Assembly: GCA_964640635.1 (NCBI GenBank) | Contig: CAZXFD010000001.1 | Span: forward strand, 17,273-81,272 | Source: an uncultured Gammaproteobacteria bacterium | GTDB lineage: Bacteria; Patescibacteriota; Patescibacteriia; UBA1558; S5-K13 | DNA: 64,000 bases | Reading direction: 5' to 3' | Shown here: piece by piece, positions 4,324 to 62,588 of the stretch | Layout: the number at the start of each line of letters is the position of its first letter | Numbering within the stretch: the first letter of the stretch is position 1 | Position numbers and translations under genes: made by a program | The notes under the pieces: generated by a model | What the model was told of the DNA's origin: nothing | Databases searched by the model: none | Seen by the model: the letters and a program-made list of their open reading frames with translations, nothing else

Positions 4324-5631
4324 ATGTTTGAAGAAAAACAAAATCAAAATATAGATACAAATATGGATCAAGCTCAAAAAGTTTTTGACAGTTTAGAATC
4401 AGAGAAAGAATTAGAAATCAATGATGATAATATTCACTCTATGCCAGAGAGATTTTTAATGCCCTCTGAAATGAAGTCTGGAAAAAATAATGCAGGACTT
4501 ATTATTTTGATAGTTGTGGTTTTGTTAGTAGTCTTAGCTGTCGCAGGATTTGCTTTTTATGTTTTTTATGATAACAAAAAAACTTCTGATCAGGATATTT
4601 TAAATGTAGAACAAAACACTACAACAACTCAAGAAATCATTGATATTAATACACAAGATAATTTACAAACTCCAGAATTGAGAGATAAAAAAAGATTAGA
4701 TGATGTTTTGGAAATAAGAACAGCGCTGAGTTTGTATTTTAAAGAACAAGGAAAGTATCCAAATTCACTATTTGATTTGTCATCTTATCTAACAACTATT
4801 CCAATAAATCCATCGCCAGGCGGGGAGTCTTATAATTATCAAGTTAAAGATGCTAATAAAGACTATATAGTTACATTTGCTTTTGAGGGAAATATTGAAA
4901 ATGGAAATCTCATTTTTAATTCTGGAAAATATCAATTAGGCCCTATTTTCGGAATAGAGCCATATAAAGAAGTTCAAAACAATGAAGATCAGGACTCGAT
5001 TGATAATGATAATAATATTCCAGACGATGTTAATGCCGACAATAACCAACAAATGCCTATTATTCCCCCAAAAGGAACTGACACTGATGATGATGGACTT
5101 ACAGATGCAGAAGAGATTATTTTTCAAACAAATGTGGATTTAGTAGATACAGACTCAGATACCTACAATGATAAAGAAGAAATTCTTAATTTATATGATC
5201 CAACAAAGATAGACGGAAAATTATTAGAAAATATTTCATTGGCAAGGGTTTTTATTGAAGAAGAATTAAAGTATTCTTTTGTTTATCCAGCAAAGTGGAT
5301 GGCTCAAACAAAAGATAAAGAAACAAGGGATGTTATGATTTTTGAAGCAGAGAATAAGGATTTTATAAAAATTCAGGCAAAAGATAATCCACAAGAATTG
5401 TCTGCAAAAAATTGGTATTTAAACACCTCTCCAGAAGTTAATCCAGACGATTTGAGTAATTACAAAAACAGGAATAATCTTGTCGGAGTTAAATCAAAAG
5501 ATGGTTTAAATGTTTATATTTCAACTGGTAACAAAATTTACATAATATCTTATATTTCAATAGATACAGTGAAGTTAAATTATCAGTCCATATTTGATTT
5601 GATTGCAAACACCTTCAAAATTTCAATTTAA
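4324..5631 (+). CDS. Membrane-anchored TSP3-repeat protein, a paralog of the preceding gene, carrying a pseudopilin (GspG)-like segment
   Basis: A TM helix (GLIILIVVVLLVVLAVAGFAFYVFY) is followed by RLDDVLEIRTALSLYFKEQGKYPNS, which fits the R..L.D...I..AL..Y...G.YP pattern of GspG/pseudopilins. There is no canonical prepilin cleavage motif. TSP3 repeats DTDDDGLTDAEE and DTDSDTYNDKEE are followed by YDPTKIDGKLL. The C-terminus is similar to that of the 3200 gene. Confidence 0.55.
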   Translation: MFEEKQNQNIDTNMDQAQKVFDSLESEKELEINDDNIHSMPERFLMPSEMKSGKNNAGLIILIVVVLLVVLAVAGFAFYVFYDNKKTSDQDILNVEQNTTTTQEIIDINTQDNLQTPELRDKKRLDDVLEIRTALSLYFKEQGKYPNSLFDLSSYLTTIPINPSPGGESYNYQVKDANKDYIVTFAFEGNIENGNLIFNSGKYQLGPIFGIEPYKEVQNNEDQDSIDNDNNIPDDVNADNNQQMPIIPPKGTDTDDDGLTDAEEIIFQTNVDLVDTDSDTYNDKEEILNLYDPTKIDGKLLENISLARVFIEEELKYSFVYPAKWMAQTKDKETRDVMIFEAENKDFIKIQAKDNPQELSAKNWYLNTSPEVNPDDLSNYKNRNNLVGVKSKDGLNVYISTGNKIYIISYISIDTVKLNYQSIFDLIANTFKISI

Positions 5632-14156: not shown

Positions 14157-15038
14157 ATGAAAAAATATAAAAAAACATTATTTGCACTGATTCCTATTCT
14201 TATTTTGTTTGTTGTAAATATTGTAAAAGCACAAATACAGCTTCAAGTTGCCCTACCCACCGCAAATGATGGAACAATAAGTAGTGTATCAGGACTTAGC
14301 GATTATATAAGAATAGTATATAACTATGGAATTTATGCAGGTAGTGTTATCGCTGTTATAATGATTTCTATAAATGCCTTTAAGTGGGTATCAGCAGGTG
14401 GAAACAAAAGCACGATAGGAAAGGCAAAGGACGGAATGATAACTTCAATGGTGGGGCTTTTTGTTCTTTTTGGATCTTATCTTATTCTTAGCACAATAAA
14501 TGGAGAGCTCGTGGCCCTGAAAGCATTAGATGTTAGGCCTTTAGACACGAAGGCATATTTGGAAAAAGTAGAAAGATCTTCTGGTTTAGATACAGCGTAT
14601 TATGATGACATGTATGTTGCAGATCAAGGACGCGAGAGCGAAGGCAATCCAAGACCAGTAGCTGTATTGAGATGTGCTAATGATTCGGACACTAGTCATT
14701 ATTGCATTGACCTTCCATTAGGTCAGCCAGATATTCAATATGAGTTTAGCACTACAATAGGTGCATGCGAATATACTACTATGCAATGTGTTTCAAACGC
14801 TCGTAATTGCAATAAGACCTGCCTAAACTATAGTGATTGCGGAAATTTTTCTAATGGTTATTGTGATGGAGCGGGTCCACAAGTTTGTTGTAGTCGGCAA
14901 AAAAGACCTAATGAGACAACCTGTAGTCATAATATACAGTGTTTAAGTGGATGTTGTTGTAATTTTAGCTGGCCTACAAGAGATGTGTGTAGATCAACAG
15001 CAAATTGTAATTTACTTAATAAGAGCTGTATTCAGTAA
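14157..15038 (+). CDS. Pilin-like membrane protein (signal peptide plus two hydrophobic helices, a VirB2/TrbC-like topology) with a cysteine-rich C-terminal domain
   Basis: A signal-like N-terminus and the conserved core DYIRIVYNYGIYAGSVIAVIMISINAFKWVSAGGNKSTIGKAKDGMITSMVGLFVLFGSYLILSTINGELVALKAL, followed by about 150 aa with more than 20 Cys (GYCDGAGPQVCCS...). The assignment to a pilin fold rests on topology only. Confidence 0.6.
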   Translation: MKKYKKTLFALIPILILFVVNIVKAQIQLQVALPTANDGTISSVSGLSDYIRIVYNYGIYAGSVIAVIMISINAFKWVSAGGNKSTIGKAKDGMITSMVGLFVLFGSYLILSTINGELVALKALDVRPLDTKAYLEKVERSSGLDTAYYDDMYVADQGRESEGNPRPVAVLRCANDSDTSHYCIDLPLGQPDIQYEFSTTIGACEYTTMQCVSNARNCNKTCLNYSDCGNFSNGYCDGAGPQVCCSRQKRPNETTCSHNIQCLSGCCCNFSWPTRDVCRSTANCNLLNKSCIQ

Positions 15039-15061
15039 GTAGGTATATAATTTTTAATATA

Positions 15062-16057
15062 ATGCAAAACATTTTTTTGAAGAGATTAAAAGATGCTAAG
15101 ATAACTCATATTTTGTTTTTTGTTGTAATTTTTATTTTTTTTATTGTTAAAATTACAAAAGCAATACCACTCGAACATGCAATACCAGGGCCAGATGGAG
15201 ACATAAGTAGTGTAGAGGGTTTAAGTGATTACATAAGAATTGTATATAGTTATGGAATATATGCAGGTAGCGTCTTGGCGGTTGTCATGATATCTGTAAA
15301 TGCTTTTAAGTGGGTATCAGCAGGTGGGAATAAAGGCTCTATAGATAAGGCAAAAAATGGAATGATAATGTCTATAGTGGGACTTTTTCTTGTTTTTGGA
15401 TCTTATCTTATACTCAGTACAATAAATGGAGAGCTCGTGGCCTTGAAAGCATTGAATGTGTATCCTATATCACCTCAAGAATTTGTGGGAGTAGATTTTT
15501 CGACAATGAAACTTGCTGAAACTTTACAACAAGATATAGCAAATGATATTCGTTGTAATTTAATCGCAGATAATAATTGTCCACCAGGCAAGGTTTGTAG
15601 AAAGTTAAAGGATAAATATATTTGCACAGAACCACTAGGAGATAATATGGCCTGTGAAATACAAAGTGAATGTAGGCCCCCACTTACATGTAATGCGCAA
15701 ACATTGAAATGTGAAATCCCTCCTGTTTTACAGTGTGCAGGAATTTTAGATAATTATAGATGCTTTACAAATCTTTACCCTAGTCCCAGTTTTGGATATT
15801 GTGACAACAGACAATGTGTTCCTTGTCGTGGAGAAGGACAGATATGTACAACTATAACTAGAATAGTGCCTTTGGTAACTTTTGTAGCATGGCCCATGCA
15901 ATGTGTAAATAACAATAGTGGGATTTGTGGATTGCCATTTTATGAGGCAATTGAACCATGGGATCAATTACCGGATTCTTATAAAGCACCTAATACGGGT
16001 TCTTGTACTGGTGGTAGTTGGTTTCAGCATCAAGTTGGAAATTATTATTGTGAATAG
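15062..16057 (+). CDS. Tandem paralog of the 14157 gene with a different cysteine-rich C-terminal domain
   Basis: The core is nearly identical to its neighbour at the DNA level (for example ggatcttatcttatactcagtacaataaatggagagctcgtggcc). The C-terminal ~190 aa has EGF- or knottin-like Cys spacing. The first 13 aa (MQNIFLKRLKDAK) match the N-terminus of the downstream M16 peptidase. Confidence 0.6.
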   Translation: MQNIFLKRLKDAKITHILFFVVIFIFFIVKITKAIPLEHAIPGPDGDISSVEGLSDYIRIVYSYGIYAGSVLAVVMISVNAFKWVSAGGNKGSIDKAKNGMIMSIVGLFLVFGSYLILSTINGELVALKALNVYPISPQEFVGVDFSTMKLAETLQQDIANDIRCNLIADNNCPPGKVCRKLKDKYICTEPLGDNMACEIQSECRPPLTCNAQTLKCEIPPVLQCAGILDNYRCFTNLYPSPSFGYCDNRQCVPCRGEGQICTTITRIVPLVTFVAWPMQCVNNNSGICGLPFYEAIEPWDQLPDSYKAPNTGSCTGGSWFQHQVGNYYCE

Positions 16058-21531: not shown

Positions 21532-22347
21532 ATGTTAATAGACACTCATGCACATTTGAACTTTGAGGCATACGACAGCGATCTAGAGGATGTTGTTAAA
21601 AGATGCATTGACTTTCCTATGATGGTGATAAATGTAGGATCACAGTTTGATACATCAAAAAAAGCCGTAGAGCTTTCAAAGCATAAAAATTTTTATAGCT
21701 CATTAGGACTTCATCCAATACATGTATTTGATGAAGATTTTATTTTGGAAGATTATCAAACTTTGATTGATGACAACACTTCGACTTCGCTCAGTGCGTA
21801 TTCGCAAGTTGTTGCGATAGGAGAAACAGGTTTAGATTATTTTCATATAAAAGAAAAATCTATTCCAATTGATGAGGTTATAAAAAAACAAAAAGATATT
21901 TTTATATGTCATATTGATTTAGCACGACAAAATAATTTACCGCTTATTTTGCACGGTAGAAATTCGCAGGAATTAAATACGTGTTATAGGGATATTTTTA
22001 GGATATTAAAATCAGAGGATTATTTTAGCGGTGTCGTTCATTGCTTTGGAGGAGGCGTTGACGAGGCAAGGGTAGCTCTAAATTTAGAATTATATATTGG
22101 ATTTACTGGTATAATTACATTTCCAAAGGCAGAAGATTTACGTGAGGTTGTAAAATTTGTGCCACTTGATAGAATACTCATAGAAACAGATTCTCCATAT
22201 TTAGCCCCTCAAGCAGTAAGGGGCCAAAGAAATGAGCCTATTTATGTAGAAGAAGTAGCAAAAGAAATAGCAAGGATTAAAGGGTTGGACGTAGAAGACG
22301 TGATAAATGCTACGTGGGAAAATGCAAAAAATCTTTTTAAAATTTAA
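21532..22347 (+). CDS. tatD: TatD family metal-dependent DNase/hydrolase
   Basis: MLIDTHAHLNF, GETGLDY and the histidines of the TatD fold. Confidence 0.85.
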   Translation: MLIDTHAHLNFEAYDSDLEDVVKRCIDFPMMVINVGSQFDTSKKAVELSKHKNFYSSLGLHPIHVFDEDFILEDYQTLIDDNTSTSLSAYSQVVAIGETGLDYFHIKEKSIPIDEVIKKQKDIFICHIDLARQNNLPLILHGRNSQELNTCYRDIFRILKSEDYFSGVVHCFGGGVDEARVALNLELYIGFTGIITFPKAEDLREVVKFVPLDRILIETDSPYLAPQAVRGQRNEPIYVEEVAKEIARIKGLDVEDVINATWENAKNLFKI

Positions 22348-24870: not shown

Positions 24871-25004
24871 ATATCCTCCTAATTTATAACTATTTAAAGA
24901 ATGATAATCTTTTTTTTATTTTCTGTCAATTCTCGCTTGTTAGAGTACGGTGTAATTAAAAAAGCACCCTTCGACTTTGCTCAGGGCGCTTTTCTGTTTG
25001 AAAA

Positions 25005-58703: not shown

Positions 58704-58785
58704 ACGAAGGATAAATAATAAAGGGTGAAGTGTAAGTTTTGAAGGATGAAGTTTTGGGTATTTATAATTAAATAAAACAAATTGT

Positions 58786-59148
58786 ATGAAAAGCGATTTA
58801 AAAAATCCAGATAATAATCTGGTAGAAAGAACTTTTAGGTTTGCGCAAAATGTTATTAATTTGTGTAGATCCATTGATCAAAATATAATAACAAGACCAA
58901 TAATTTCACAATTAATTAAATCTGGAACAAGTGTCGGCGCAAATTATAGGGAAGCACAGAATGCGTGTTCTAGGAAAGATTTTAGAAATAAATTATATAT
59001 TTGTAAAAAAGAAATTTCAGAAACAGAATATTGGTTAAGATTATTGAAAGAATATGATTTTTCAAAAATTAGTTTGTTAGAAAAAGAAGCTCAAGAATTG
59101 ACACTTATATTTGGTAAATCAATTTCTTCTATCAATAAAACATTATAA
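58786..59148 (+). CDS. Four-helix-bundle protein (formerly 23S rRNA intervening-sequence protein family)
   Basis: VERTFRFAQNVINLCR...SQLIKSGTSVGANYREAQNA...EYWL. Confidence 0.65.
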   Translation: MKSDLKNPDNNLVERTFRFAQNVINLCRSIDQNIITRPIISQLIKSGTSVGANYREAQNACSRKDFRNKLYICKKEISETEYWLRLLKEYDFSKISLLEKEAQELTLIFGKSISSINKTL

Positions 59149-59230
59149 TTCTTACTTCAAACTTTATCCTTAATAATTTAACATTCATTATAATTCTTAC
59201 TTCAAACTTTATACTTAATCACTTAACATT
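59143..59230 (+). repeat. About 45-nt tandem direct repeat x2 in the glmS leader
   Basis: ttataattcttacttcaaactttatccttaat... and ttataattcttacttcaaactttatacttaat... run up to the glmS ATG. Confidence 0.8.
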
Positions 59231-61027
59231 ATGTGTGGAATAATAGGATACATTGGAAAAAAACAAGTCGCTCCAATATTAATTGCAGGACTAAAACGTC
59301 TTGAATATCGCGGTTATGATAGTGCTGGTATTTGTGTTTTGGAAAATAATAGTTTAAGTACTATTAAAAAGCGAGGACATATTGCAGAGCTCGAACAAGA
59401 ACTTAATTCTCGAGAAGTAATAGGGACTATTGGTATTGCTCATACAAGATGGGCTACTCATGGTGAGCCAAATGAAATAAATGCTCATCCTCATTATGAT
59501 TGTACTGGTAATATTTCTATAATTCATAATGGGATTATTGAAAATTTTCAAGCACTGAAAAAATTATTAGAGAACGAAGGTCATAAATTTGTATCAGAAA
59601 CAGATTCAGAGGTTTTGGCACATTTGATAGAAAAATTTTATAGCAGCGATATTGAAAACGCTGTAATAAAAGCATTGAAGCAAGTTGAAGGAACATTTGG
59701 TTTAGCAGTACTTTGTAAAAATGAAGAAAAAATAATAGTTGCTCGTCGAGGGTCACCTCTTATTATTGGCGTGGGAGAGGGTGAAGTTTTTGTTGCAAGC
59801 GATGCCTCAGCAATTCTTGAATACACCAAACAAGTAATTTATCTAAAAGATAATGAATTAGCAATCTTAAGTCGCGATAATTATGAAATAAAAAATCTTG
59901 ATGGTGTCTCATGTGATTTTGAAATACAAGAAATTAAGTGGAGTTTGGATGAGATAGAAAAAGTTGGTTTTAAACATTTTATGCTTAAGGAAATTTTTGA
60001 GCAACCAAGGTCAATAGAAAATACGCTTCGCGGAAGAATAAATGGAGGCAAAATAAAATTATCTCTAAACTTCAATCCAAAAAGTATAAATAGAATTATC
60101 ATTACAGCATGTGGAACAAGTTGGCATTCGGCTCTAATAGGAAAATATTTGATAGAGAAAATTGCAAAAATTCCCGTTGAAGTTGATTATGCTTCAGAGT
60201 TTCGCTACCGTGATCCTATTATAAGAAGCGATGATTTGTTTGTAGTGATTTCTCAGTCAGGTGAAACAGCAGATACATTAGCGGCTCTAAGGCAGGCTAC
60301 AGTTTGCGAGACATTAGGAATAGTAAATGTAGTGGGCTCTACTATTTCAAGAGAAGTAAAATCAGGAATATATCTTCATGCAGGACCAGAAATCGGTGTA
60401 GCAAGCACAAAAGCTTTTACGTGTCAGGTGACTGCAATTATTCTTTTAGCATTATATATTAGACAAGAATTAGGAATGGAAATAGATAATAGATTAATAG
60501 AAGAATTTATTATAATACCTGAGAAAATAAAAATTATTTTAGATAAAAGCGAAAAAATAAAAGAATTGTCATACAATTTTATAGATGCAAAAAACTTTTT
60601 ATATCTTGGTCGAGGAGTAAATTTTCCAGTTGCTCTTGAAGGAGCTCTTAAGCTCAAAGAAATTTCTTATATTCATGCAGAAGGATATCCAGCAGCAGAG
60701 ATGAAACATGGACCAATAGCTCTTATTGATGAAAATATGTTTGTTGTATTTATTGTAAACAAGGGTGAGATTTTTGAAAAAGTAGTAAGTAATATGCAAG
60801 AGGTAAAAGCACGTGGAGGAAAAATAATTTGTATTACAGATTGCCCAGAAGAGGAGATGATAAAGAAGTTATCAAGCTTTATAATTACGGTGCCGCAAAT
60901 CCATGAAGAGTTATCACCACTTATAAATGTAATTCCACTTCAGTTGATGAGTTATTATGTTGCTGATGCAAAAGGAATTAATGTTGATAAGCCAAGAAAT
61001 TTAGCAAAGTCGGTCACGGTAGAATAG
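59231..61027 (+). CDS. glmS: Glutamine--fructose-6-phosphate aminotransferase
   Basis: N-terminal nucleophile MCGIIGY, two SIS domains and a C-terminal ...VTVE. Confidence 0.92.
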   Translation: MCGIIGYIGKKQVAPILIAGLKRLEYRGYDSAGICVLENNSLSTIKKRGHIAELEQELNSREVIGTIGIAHTRWATHGEPNEINAHPHYDCTGNISIIHNGIIENFQALKKLLENEGHKFVSETDSEVLAHLIEKFYSSDIENAVIKALKQVEGTFGLAVLCKNEEKIIVARRGSPLIIGVGEGEVFVASDASAILEYTKQVIYLKDNELAILSRDNYEIKNLDGVSCDFEIQEIKWSLDEIEKVGFKHFMLKEIFEQPRSIENTLRGRINGGKIKLSLNFNPKSINRIIITACGTSWHSALIGKYLIEKIAKIPVEVDYASEFRYRDPIIRSDDLFVVISQSGETADTLAALRQATVCETLGIVNVVGSTISREVKSGIYLHAGPEIGVASTKAFTCQVTAIILLALYIRQELGMEIDNRLIEEFIIIPEKIKIILDKSEKIKELSYNFIDAKNFLYLGRGVNFPVALEGALKLKEISYIHAEGYPAAEMKHGPIALIDENMFVVFIVNKGEIFEKVVSNMQEVKARGGKIICITDCPEEEMIKKLSSFIITVPQIHEELSPLINVIPLQLMSYYVADAKGINVDKPRNLAKSVTVE

Positions 61028-61068
61028 TTTTGAAGTATAAAGTTTGAAGTTTGAAGGAATGGTTTTAT

Positions 61069-61195
61069 AAATTAGCTTCTCGACTTCTTTCCGCTTCGCG
61101 GAACTTCGCTCGAAGACTGATTAGTTTCAGTATTCGAACGTAGTCCCCGAGCAACGTCGAGGGGTTGGAGTCGAGAATCTGAAACTTTTAATAAT
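61069..61195 (+). repeat. 127-bp GC-rich structured direct repeat, copy 1 (upstream of the GDSL gene)
   Basis: aaattagcttctcgacttctttccgcttcgcgg...ggagtcgagaatctgaaacttttaataat; the terminal arms ttctcgact and agtcgagaa are complementary. Confidence 0.9.
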
Positions 61196-61210
61196 CAAAT
61201 ATTAAAAATT

Positions 61211-61783
61211 ATGAAAAAAATTTGTATATTTGGAGATAGCGTTGTTTGTGGTGAAGGAGACGATATTGGTGGTGGATGGGTTAATAGACTGGCAAATCAT
61301 TTTAAAGATTTTGAAATTTTTAATTTGGGAATTGATGGCGGAACAATATTGAGTATTCAAGAGATATTTGAAAAAGAAATAAAAGAAAAGAATCCCGATA
61401 CTATTATTTTTGAAGCAGGTGGAAATGATAGCGCTTATGATAAAGAGGCTCACGAATTTTTGACAAATGAAGATGAATTTGAAAATATCGTAAGAAATCT
61501 TATTGTTCAAGCACAAAAACATGTAGAAAATATTTTTTTTATTGGATTTACAAATTGTGATGAAAAAAGAACTATGCCAGTTTCTTGGTGTAATCTATGT
61601 TATGAAAATAAAAATATTCAAAAGTATAATGAGATTATAAAAAATGTTTGTGATGAAAATGGAGTTTTGTTTATTGATACATATGGGGTATTAGAAAATG
61701 ATGATTTTGCAGATGGTCTTCACCCAAATTCATCGGGGCATGAAAAGATATTTGAAAAAATTAAAGACTCGTTTAAATTTTAG
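61211..61783 (+). CDS. SGNH/GDSL hydrolase
   Basis: ICIFGDSVVCGEGD (GDS block), GGNDS and DGLHP blocks; flanked by 127-bp direct repeats. Confidence 0.7.
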   Translation: MKKICIFGDSVVCGEGDDIGGGWVNRLANHFKDFEIFNLGIDGGTILSIQEIFEKEIKEKNPDTIIFEAGGNDSAYDKEAHEFLTNEDEFENIVRNLIVQAQKHVENIFFIGFTNCDEKRTMPVSWCNLCYENKNIQKYNEIIKNVCDENGVLFIDTYGVLENDDFADGLHPNSSGHEKIFEKIKDSFKF

Positions 61784-61797
61784 AATATAGATTTTGA

Positions 61798-61924
61798 AAA
61801 TTAGCTTCTCGACTTCTTTCCACTTCGCGGAACTTCGCTCGAAGACTAATTAGTTTCAGTATTCGAACGTAGTCCCCGAGCAACGTCGAGGGGTTGGAGT
61901 CGAGAATCTGAAACTTTTAATAAT
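61798..61924 (+). repeat. 127-bp GC-rich structured direct repeat, copy 2 (downstream of the GDSL gene)
   Basis: Identical to copy 1 except two G-to-A changes (ccgctt to ccactt; gactgatt to gactaatt). Confidence 0.9.
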
Positions 61925-61940
61925 AAAAACTAAATACTAA

Positions 61941-62588
61941 TTGATGCAACTTCAGCTACAACAATTATTCAAAGATTTTGATAAACTCCATTTAAAACAT
62001 GGGGATTGTAATTATCACTCAATATATGGAGCGGGATGTATAAAAAGTCCGAAGTTTATGTTTGTTTTTATGAATCCAACGGGAAGAAATATTTCAGCTA
62101 ATAAATCTTGGCGAGGTATAAGAGCCCCTTGGATTGCTACAAAAAATGTTTGGAAAATATTTTTTGAGCTTAATATGATATCAAAGAAAAGTTTTGATTT
62201 TATTAAAAGCGCCAAAGCAAATGATTGGAATGTGGATTTTGCAAATAATCTTTATGAAGAAATTGCTAAAAACAAAGCTTATATCACAAATCTTGCAAAG
62301 TGCACACAAATTGATGCAAGGCCATTAAAAGACTATGTATTTAAAGAGTATTTAGAATTAATTTTTAAAGAAATAGATATAATAAAACCAAAATATATTG
62401 TAAGCTTTGGTAATCAAGTTAGTTCTATATTACTAGGTAAAAATATTAGTATATCAAAATTAGAAAAAGAATTTGAAATATTATTAGTTAAAGATAAAAA
62501 ATATAAAGTATTTCCTACTTATTATCCAGTTGGTCAGGGAATGAGAAATATGCCAAAGGCAATAAGTAAAATAAAAAGCATAAAATAA
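61941..62588 (+). CDS. Uracil-DNA glycosylase superfamily-like protein (tentative)
   Basis: KFMFVFMNPTGRN resembles motif A (G-x-NPG) of the UDG/MUG superfamily; the rest is unverified. Confidence 0.4.
   Translation: MMQLQLQQLFKDFDKLHLKHGDCNYHSIYGAGCIKSPKFMFVFMNPTGRNISANKSWRGIRAPWIATKNVWKIFFELNMISKKSFDFIKSAKANDWNVDFANNLYEEIAKNKAYITNLAKCTQIDARPLKDYVFKEYLELIFKEIDIIKPKYIVSFGNQVSSILLGKNISISKLEKEFEILLVKDKKYKVFPTYYPVGQGMRNMPKAISKIKSIK

Follow-up and report, generated by a model that had tools for sequence, protein, structure and literature searches.

Paired palindromic repeats around a GDSL hydrolase gene in a Patescibacteria genome: probable composite intergenic elements that share a hairpin module with many phyla

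Repetitive extragenic palindromes (REPs), and the bacterial interspersed mosaic elements (BIMEs) that contain them, are G+C-rich intergenic stem-loops located mostly after open reading frames (ORFs), between co-directional genes (Di Nocera et al. 2013, PMC3733652). Miniature inverted-repeat transposable elements (MITEs) are about 130-170 nt long and non-coding; their terminal inverted repeats are imperfect, their interior folds strongly, and a given site may be occupied in one relative and empty in another. The attC sites of integrons and the Vibrio cholerae repeats (VCRs) have a similar length, are imperfect palindromes and bracket single ORFs as direct repeats. All these traits are also seen in a pair of 127-nt direct repeats, copies A and B, on contig CAZXFD010000001.1 (assembly GCA_964640635.1), of which we analyzed a stretch of 64,000 nt (the window). 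The repeats lie on either side of a gene for a GDSL/SGNH hydrolase (the GDSL gene), between glmS and a gene of the uracil-DNA glycosylase (UDG) superfamily. The best-named homologues of the genes in the window belong to the Patescibacteria, or candidate phyla radiation (CPR), group. We consider it likely that the two repeats are composite, nested palindromic intergenic repeats, REP/BIME-like in build and MITE-like in size, and not cassette boundaries.

Two other systems resemble a 20-nt hairpin module found in each copy. In heterocystous cyanobacteria, Elhai et al. reportedly described in 2008 small dispersed repeats (SDRs) and arrays of heptamer short tandemly repeated repetitive (STRR) sequences, the former being very small repeats that insert into each other beside tandem 7-nt arrays. 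The module shares with them nested insertion and tandem 7-nt arrays nearby, a likeness of arrangement. The described system closest in kind is the Ssn nuclease/SRM system. Ssn proteins (cd10448) are single-domain GIY-YIG nucleases that cut single-stranded DNA site-specifically. Their binding sites are hairpin repeats (NTS in Neisseria, SRM generally) flanking their own genes and others, and the NTS-gene-NTS configuration reduces transformation (Chenal et al. 2025, PMC11893778). Like the module, NTS and SRM form hairpins, the repeats being 20-50 nt long, stand at one end or both ends of genes for small single-domain GIY-YIG proteins, flank other genes as well, and occur in several phyla.

The original prediction, made from the sequence of the window, had described near-identical 127-bp direct repeats with two differences. 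The gapless alignment of copies A and B agreed, with two mismatches (G61093 versus A61822 and G61119 versus A61848) and BLAST E-values of 1e-65 to 1e-70. The further descriptive claims were also correct. The repeat core is G+C-rich (45%, versus 31.6% in the whole window), the copies bracket one complete gene, and copy A, said to start about 40 nt after the glmS stop codon, starts 41 nt past it. Copy A ends 15 nt ahead of the GDSL start codon; copy B starts 14 nt past the GDSL stop codon and ends 19 nt ahead of the likely UDG start codon. No third copy of the 127-nt repeat was found in the window by BLAST. Similarity continues beyond the core on both flanks (61042-61212 versus 61771-61941, 171 nt, 88%), and because this weaker similarity runs past the core on both sides, the true copied unit is probably about 145-170 nt long. 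The 127-nt element has stop codons in all six frames. The tetranucleotide TCGA occurs five times in each copy, or about 39 times per kb compared with 1.1 per kb window-wide, and 10 of the 73 sites in the window lie inside the two copies.

Complementary terminal arms and internal hairpins had likewise been proposed, and folding returned both. The arms form an outer stem of 15 pairs over 16 positions (13 Watson-Crick and two G-T), that is, an imperfect terminal inverted repeat, which encloses three hairpins (Table 1). The minimum free energy (MFE) of the RNA was -48.7 kcal/mol for copy A (z = -5.0) and -41.2 kcal/mol for copy B (z = -3.3), and the complementary (-) strand folded about equally well as the + strand. 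Both differences between the copies disrupt predicted pairs in copy B. The G-to-A change at 61822 disrupts one pair of hairpin h1; that at 61848 disrupts a pair of the central hairpin and generates the palindrome CTAATTAG, and the same A variant is present in two related loci (L245 and L243; loci fetched from other sequences carry L numbers). The fold looks like a cloverleaf, but a tRNA/tmRNA scan of the region gave nothing.

The layout of copy A suggests how these hairpins are put together. Five parts can be read off its sequence, which can be written as TTCTCGAC {TTC-tt-(TCCGC TTC GCGGA)-a-CTTC} GCTCGAAGA, then the apex CTGATTAGTTTCAG, then TATTCGAAC {GTAGT-(CCCC GAGCAACGTCGA GGGG)-TTGGA} GTCGAGAAT. 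Between the halves of each of the half-site pairs, TCGAC...GCTCG and the complement GA(G/A)C...GTCGA, a smaller hairpin is inserted; for example, h1 is nested between TCGAC (61080-61084) and GCTCG (61108-61112). Modules thus nest in each other's loops, and the 127-nt element is put together from such hairpins. Building into larger mosaics and variability between strains are properties of REPs and BIMEs, and both are seen here.

The last of the three hairpins, the 20-mer CCCCGAGCAACGTCGAGGGG, is widespread. In a collection of species-representative genomes, more than 118 stretches, which together represent at least 14 phyla, contained exact copies; these counts are lower bounds from exact matches only, against an expectation from base composition of roughly one to about ten. 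By record titles, Acidobacteriota/Vicinamibacterales made up the majority among the matches listed. The other groups were Gemmatimonadales; Planctomycetota (Pirellulales, Phycisphaerae and Sedimentisphaerales); Patescibacteria, Kaiserbacteria, Saccharibacteria and Peribacteraceae; Bifidobacteriaceae, Alistipes, Chthoniobacteraceae, Clostridiales and Proteobacteria; and Brevinematales, Nitrospirae, Trueperaceae, Margulisiibacteriota and Baltobacteraceae. Bacteroidota were among the phyla with the exact 20-mer. In high-G+C genomes the 20-mer was mostly preceded by a partner in the opposite orientation (gCCCTTCGAC-nnn-GCTCAGGGca), resulting in a longer imperfect palindrome. Scans of viral contigs for the 20-mer and for the composite pattern gave no match.

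When instances of GAGC-N2-4-GTCGA other than the 20-mer were analyzed in about 1.6 Mb of fetched loci, 81 of 315 were enclosed directly by four or more bases of perfect complementarity. In a control with the 3' flank shifted by 5 nt, only 3 of 315 were. The real set had 48 distinct stem sequences. Because of this excess over the control and the number of different stems, the module belongs to a family in which the stem is variable and the loop, GAGC-N2-4-GTCGA, is conserved. This is one of several differences from REPs, in which the stem and not the loop is the conserved part. REPs also carry a conserved unpaired end tag, GTAG or CGTC, whereas the module has no such tag: only in this lineage does GTAG (61141-61144) stand next to the 20-mer, 1 nt ahead of it, CGTC is inside the loop and not at an end, and no conserved tag was seen in the flanks of the 124 matches listed. 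Most of the REP families in PMC3733652 are confined to one or a few species, unlike the exact sequence of the module, which crosses phyla, and the module motif is absent from the supplementary tables of that paper.

Elements related to the whole repeat were found in a metagenome scan with a gapped pattern. Most matches in this one scan were chance matches in high-G+C coding DNA, among them one gene that recurred in dozens of returned contigs, several labelled human gut, and only about eight AT-rich loci were relevant. Two of the AT-rich contigs, L209 (two copies) and L168, have elements that share with the window the outer arms TTCTCGAC/GTCGAGAA, the sequence GCTCGAAGA, the exact 20-mer, and a TCCGC...GCGGA hairpin at the equivalent position with different loops. 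Unlike in the window copies, the 20-mer in these elements is placed at the apex, within an extra stem GCGAAGC/GCTTCGC. Because it is at the apex there and elsewhere in the window element, the 20-mer acts as a separate module able to occupy different loops.

Table 1. Coordinates of the repeat copies, their parts, neighbouring genes and other features in the window.
Feature	Position	Strand	Remarks
Copy A, composite palindromic repeat core	61069..61195	+	between glmS and GDSL; gapless alignment to copy B
Copy B of the repeat	61798..61924	+	between GDSL and the UDG-like gene
Copy A outer stem, 5' arm (imperfect terminal inverted repeat) TTAGCTTCTCGACTTC	61072..61087	+	pairs with 61167-61182 in MFE and centroid folds
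Copy A outer stem, 3' arm GGAGTCGAGAATCTGA	61167..61182	+	from folds
Copy B outer-stem arms	61801-61816 and 61896-61911	+	equivalents of the copy A arms
Hairpin h1, TCCGC-TTC-GCGGA	61090..61102 (copy B 61819-61831)	+	from fold
Central hairpin, arms GCTCGAA / TTCGAAC, apex CTGATTAGTTTCAG	61103..61144 (copy B 61832-61873)	+	from fold
20-nt hairpin module CCCCGAGCAACGTCGAGGGG, stem CCCC/GGGG, conserved loop GAGC-AAC-GTCGA	61145..61164 (copy B 61874-61893)	+	exact 20-mer widespread
GDSL/SGNH hydrolase gene, resident of the locus	61211..61783	+	Pfam PF13472, 5.5e-24
glmS, upstream neighbour	59231..61027	+	
UDG-superfamily gene, downstream neighbour	61944..62588	+	
Array of degenerate short repeats, TTTGAAG type, immediately 5' to copy A	61024..61059	+	inverted partner of 59194-59232; 30 nt, 83% complementary
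Further module copy CACT-TCGACTTCGCTC-AGTG	21777..21796	+	in frame within a TatD gene (21532-22347); Pfam TatD domain spans it
Further module copy GCGCCCU-GAGCAAAGUCGA-AGGGUGC, then UUUUUU	24964..24989	-	15 nt past the H+-pyrophosphatase stop codon; terminator-like

Some copies of the module are inside protein genes. The 20-mer is free of stop codons in all six frames. A Pfam domain spans it in genes for valyl-tRNA synthetase (L070), UvrD helicase (L067), UppS (L065), a class-I aldolase (L096), MnmE (L104) and an ELM1-like protein (L088), and it is in a linker between domains in LigA (L110) and in a Mur-type ligase (L121). We limit the claim of intragenic position to copies with Pfam domains on both sides; a count of long stop-free frames overestimates such copies (the L066 copy, for example, is in a 5' untranslated region) and was not used. 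The module is thus tolerated in frame in essential genes such as those for valyl-tRNA synthetase, UvrD, UppS and MnmE. Intragenic REPs have also been reported in ligase, tRNA synthetase and repair genes (PMC3733652), and some of the 20-mer copies are in frame in genes of the same kinds. Rickettsia palindromic elements (RPEs) are likewise palindromes tolerated in frame inside conserved protein genes. They are lineage-specific, however, and RPE-1 is about 100-150 nt long, whereas the intragenic unit here is a hairpin of 20-45 nt common to several phyla, and the 127-nt element itself is intergenic with stop codons in every frame.

The protein collection searched contains a protein identical to that of the GDSL gene. 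Through homologues of this protein we reached four related loci, L243 to L246, and compared them with the window. In L244 (GCA_019248445.1), the genes glmS, GDSL and UDG have 76-85% nucleotide identity to the window and the same order, both junctions are without the element, and the GDSL stop codon overlaps the UDG start codon (TAATG). L245 (GCA_019248045.1) and L246 (GCA_019248545.1), with 93-97% identity, have a single copy between glmS and GDSL (site A), and their GDSL/UDG junction (site B) is empty with the same TAATG overlap. In L243 (Logan SRR8925722; 87-94% identity), the glmS/GDSL spacer is without the element, and the GDSL gene is followed by an additional gene for 508 amino acids and then, immediately before UDG, by a copy that lacks its first 30 nt or so. 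In all four, GDSL keeps its position between glmS and UDG irrespective of the presence of the repeat. Because the gene order is kept in relatives with zero, one or a truncated copy, the GDSL gene is the ancestral resident and the repeat is the variable part of the locus. As a separate observation, the start of the 508-amino-acid gene of L243, which had no Pfam hit (1005-1040), matches the GDSL leader and first codons of L245 (4975-5010) in the sequence ATAAATTACATATAATAAAAAAT(T)ATGGAAAAAAT, which suggests that the promoter and start region was reused there through recombination.

Copy A and the site-A copy of L245 differ at 5 of 127 positions and occupy the same junction, as in L246; because this divergence is near that of the flanking genes, they are plausibly orthologous. 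Copies A and B both have GGGGTTGGAG where L245 and L243 have GGGGTCGGAG. Copy B retains ACTAATT, the ancestral sequence. On its left stands ATAGATTTTGAAA (61786-61797), exactly as it does left of the site-A copy of L245, and its right flank is also similar to the right flank of the L245 copy. Since copy B shares the derived GGGGTTGGAG with copy A and has spacer flanks of the ancestral site-A type, it is a recent copy made within this genome. Comparison of the filled site B with the empty sites of L245, L246 and L244 showed an insertion of about 165-175 nt, which replaced the last 12 nt or so of the GDSL frame and brought a new stop codon. Copying of the whole spacer, by segmental duplication or gene conversion, fits these features at least as well as precise transposition does.

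Small GIY-YIG genes were searched for by homology, and six were found among all ORFs of the fetched loci; in four of these a module was no more than 100 nt away. The order smpB-tmRNA-(module)-GIY-YIG was common to three additional CPR homologues. A module (GAGC...GTCGA / TCGAC...GCTC) was within about 70 nt of a gene end in eight of these nine genes, a set in which L120, L247, L253 and L260 represent one orthologous locus and the other five were fetched for carrying the module. The GIY-YIG genes of L040 and L023 have inverted modules on both sides, for example GTCATTTCGAGCctGTCGAGAAATC ... GATCTCTCGACaaGCTCGAGATGAC. In L253 and L260, the module ahead of the gene holds a second module between GAGC and GTCGA, a nesting like that of the window element. 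In several CPR lineages the small GIY-YIG gene is directly downstream of smpB-tmRNA (L247, 1340-1500; L253, 1320-1500; L260, 1350-1500; L120, 380-560). There, CTCGACTCG-(variable hairpin)-CTCGCTCG-GGTAAACCAC comes after the 3' end of tmRNA; next are a terminator hairpin and, immediately ahead of the GIY-YIG start, a GAGC...GTCGA module that is often nested.

Several observations weigh against our preferred interpretation of the pair as a composite intergenic repeat. There is no clean target-site duplication at site B when compared with the empty sites. Site B is filled in the window and in L243 and empty in the closer relative L245, a pattern that can be explained only by separate gains, by loss or by recombination from one lineage to another. 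Two copies are all that the 64 kb show, out of a 345-kb contig, with one further copy per related locus, and these do not show the high copy number typical of REPs and MITEs. A homology search among the ORFs of the window, which is not fully annotated, gave no transposase, REP-associated tyrosine transposase (RAYT) or GIY-YIG gene. The MITE-like palindromic element named among the earlier alternatives fits much better than a cassette; the repeat lacks both a recognisable target-site duplication and a known parent insertion sequence with matching ends.

The headline of the original prediction was a cassette-like structure, with boundaries resembling attC or VCR. In such a model, integron-like or otherwise site-specific, the GDSL gene with one repeat would move as a unit. 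Direct repeats of attC-like length with palindromic arms around a single gene, and the extra 508-amino-acid gene adjoining the truncated copy in L243, would suit such a model. The features that define attC/VCR systems were looked for and were missing. The core sites GTTRRRY and RYYYAAC had no match in either copy or its flanks (regular expression, both strands, 61040-61215 and 61769-61944). Among the genes called within 10 kb up- and downstream, several of them without a Pfam hit, no integrase or transposase family was recorded, and no cassette array was seen over the same distance, only the one "cassette". BLAST with the element against plasmid and phage collections gave no match. Mobility of the gene is contradicted by the relatives, in which GDSL stays put with no repeat, with the upstream copy only, or with a truncated downstream copy only. 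On the grounds of synteny, the missing core sites and the lack of a recognised recombinase within 10 kb, we rejected the mobile GDSL cassette, and cassettes of any such kind are very improbable here. Excision of the gene by recombination between the repeats had been proposed as well. Two direct repeats of 98% identity are long enough for homologous recombination deleting GDSL, so the event is physically possible, but no GDSL-deleted allele was seen among the relatives. Logan contigs of the same organism end within the repeat and are uninformative on such variants. These same breaks, which come from independent assemblies and from both sides, might raise the suspicion that an assembly artefact duplicated one repeat. 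They are expected, however, of a genuine two-copy repeat longer than the k-mer, and the ends of L001 and L002 hold bases specific to copy A. Because independent assemblies of relatives carry the element at either junction (site A in L245 and L246, the site before UDG in L243) and the copies can be told apart by their two differences, the repeat pair is not an assembly artefact; we give this explanation hardly any credence.

The remaining alternatives accept the repeat and give it a function. In one, also raised originally, the element is a selected intercistronic RNA, a four-way junction in a glmS-GDSL-UDG transcript that terminates, insulates or stabilises the mRNA and is kept at both junctions. 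The fold of copy A on the + strand is very stable, both copies are on the sense strand between co-directional genes, and the simpler module at 24964-24989 forms a hairpin with a U-run right after the H+-pyrophosphatase gene. Two C-to-T changes in the outer stem of the L245 copy fall opposite G, which keeps G-U pairs on the + strand alone and is a weak hint in the same direction. The interior shows no compensation, however: the differences between A and B break pairs, and the L245 copy folds worse (-38.2 kcal/mol, z = -2.5). The same junctions lack the element in close relatives, the related elements of L209 and L168 are antisense to their flanking genes, and the - strand folds as well as the + strand. 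Neither copy contains an intrinsic terminator (a CUUUU is separated from the outer stem by 3 nt), in which they are unlike the module with the U-run. Rfam 15 returned nothing for the window or the element, either at the gathering threshold or at E values up to 10, and nothing for 18 other module loci; for L018, there were only hairpin matches at chance level. Over the whole 127-nt element, the close copies have 2-5 differences and those of L209/L168 a different interior. A specific RNA function finds no support in covariation or in Rfam and need not be assumed; we consider selection for one rather unlikely. In the other alternative, the repeats are recognition hairpins of an Ssn-type GIY-YIG nuclease for single-stranded DNA, and element-GDSL-element corresponds to NTS-gene-NTS of Neisseria and modulates recombination of incoming single-stranded DNA. 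Such nucleases and hairpin motifs are described in PMC11893778, the module is near the gene end in eight of the nine small GIY-YIG genes, and L040 and L023 are flanked on both sides by inverted modules like NTS-ssnA-NTS. The way these loci were obtained, four being one orthologous locus and five picked for the module, lessens the force of that association. The published SRM consensus, HGTCWYN(0-2)YYVSBRHN(0-5)WNVSBRGN(0-2)RNCYNB, matched an NTS control, but it had no match in the window, in the elements of the relatives or in the modules adjacent to GIY-YIG genes. A homology search among ORFs found no GIY-YIG gene in the window or in L243-L246. The 5' tag that orients NTS has no conserved counterpart beside the 20-mer, and the 20-mer is just one among several hairpins of the 127-nt element. 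NTS are rarely intragenic (2%), whereas the module is in frame in several housekeeping genes. The small GIY-YIG proteins adjacent to the module are at most candidate members of the Ssn clade (cd10448). We regard the Ssn explanation of this locus as distinctly unlikely.

Under the composite intergenic repeat that we prefer, the second copy could have come from copying of the whole element-bearing spacer, through segmental duplication or gene conversion, or from mobilisation in trans. The element would be co-transcribed with glmS, GDSL and UDG and would fold into a stable multi-branch structure. REPs of E. coli are established as barriers to 3' exonucleases or as partial terminators, and the folded element could act in the same manner. 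Most likely, by our analysis, it is largely selfish or neutral, with generic structural effects on a polycistronic transcript. A false lead is thereby cleared away at this locus, which has no cassette system of the integron kind and whose GDSL gene is a normal, resident part of the genome.

The conservation of the loop across phyla points to recognition by a conserved protein. Because small GIY-YIG nucleases are adjacent to the module, and in view of the recent Ssn/NTS work, they are the obvious candidates. Should this be confirmed, the Ssn system would gain new classes of motif and would reach into the CPR bacteria, and many of the strange peptide insertions and false ORFs annotated in metagenomes would be accounted for. 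In a more speculative version, to which we give a low probability, the conserved-loop hairpin would serve a hitherto undescribed branch of the Ssn-type GIY-YIG nuclease/hairpin partnership as its recognition motif and would have spread by self-nesting and, in housekeeping genes, in-frame insertion across more than 12 phyla. The 127-nt element would then be a nested product, and element-GDSL-element would resemble NTS-gene-NTS and, in this CPR bacterium, influence how incoming single-stranded DNA recombines.

Tandem arrays of 7-8 nt, specific to the lineage, border the 20-mer in many phyla: GGTGAAA in Alistipes, GTGTCTCC in Vicinamibacterales, and GAACCGT, CTGGTGG and CCGCTTG in others. Loci with such arrays include L022 (3950-4150), L084 (4230-4330), L005, L026, L053, L111 (1480-1600), L115 and L033. 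L120 (380-530) has two copies, 112 nt apart, of a 35-nt segment whose end is the 20-mer, and the first copy is split after GTCGAG by a CTCGAC...CTCGCTCG unit, that is, a module inserted in a module.

Degenerate repeats of 7-8 nt form inverted arrays on the two sides of glmS in the window, of the CTTCAAA type upstream (59141-59232) and of the TTTGAAG type downstream (Table 1). The arrays around glmS in L245 are similarly arranged (2973-2989 and 4826-4842; 17 nt, 82%) with another sequence, of the CTAAC / GTTAAT type. The two flanks of glmS, 5' and 3', therefore remain complementary even as their sequence changes. Between short-repeat blocks (58735-59230) there is a gene of the 23S rRNA intervening sequence family (58786-59148), encoding a four-helix-bundle protein (PF05635). 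It is an indel relative to close relatives, L245 having a GGDEF gene and L244 other small ORFs in its place. A link between this gene and the hairpin module was rejected, since no homologue of it was found in any module-carrying locus. The sole other long repeat in the window, 14268-14533 versus 15194-15459 (266 nt, 82%; within 14157-16057), is the common N-terminal part of two tandem paralogues encoding cysteine-rich membrane proteins and represents an ordinary gene duplication.

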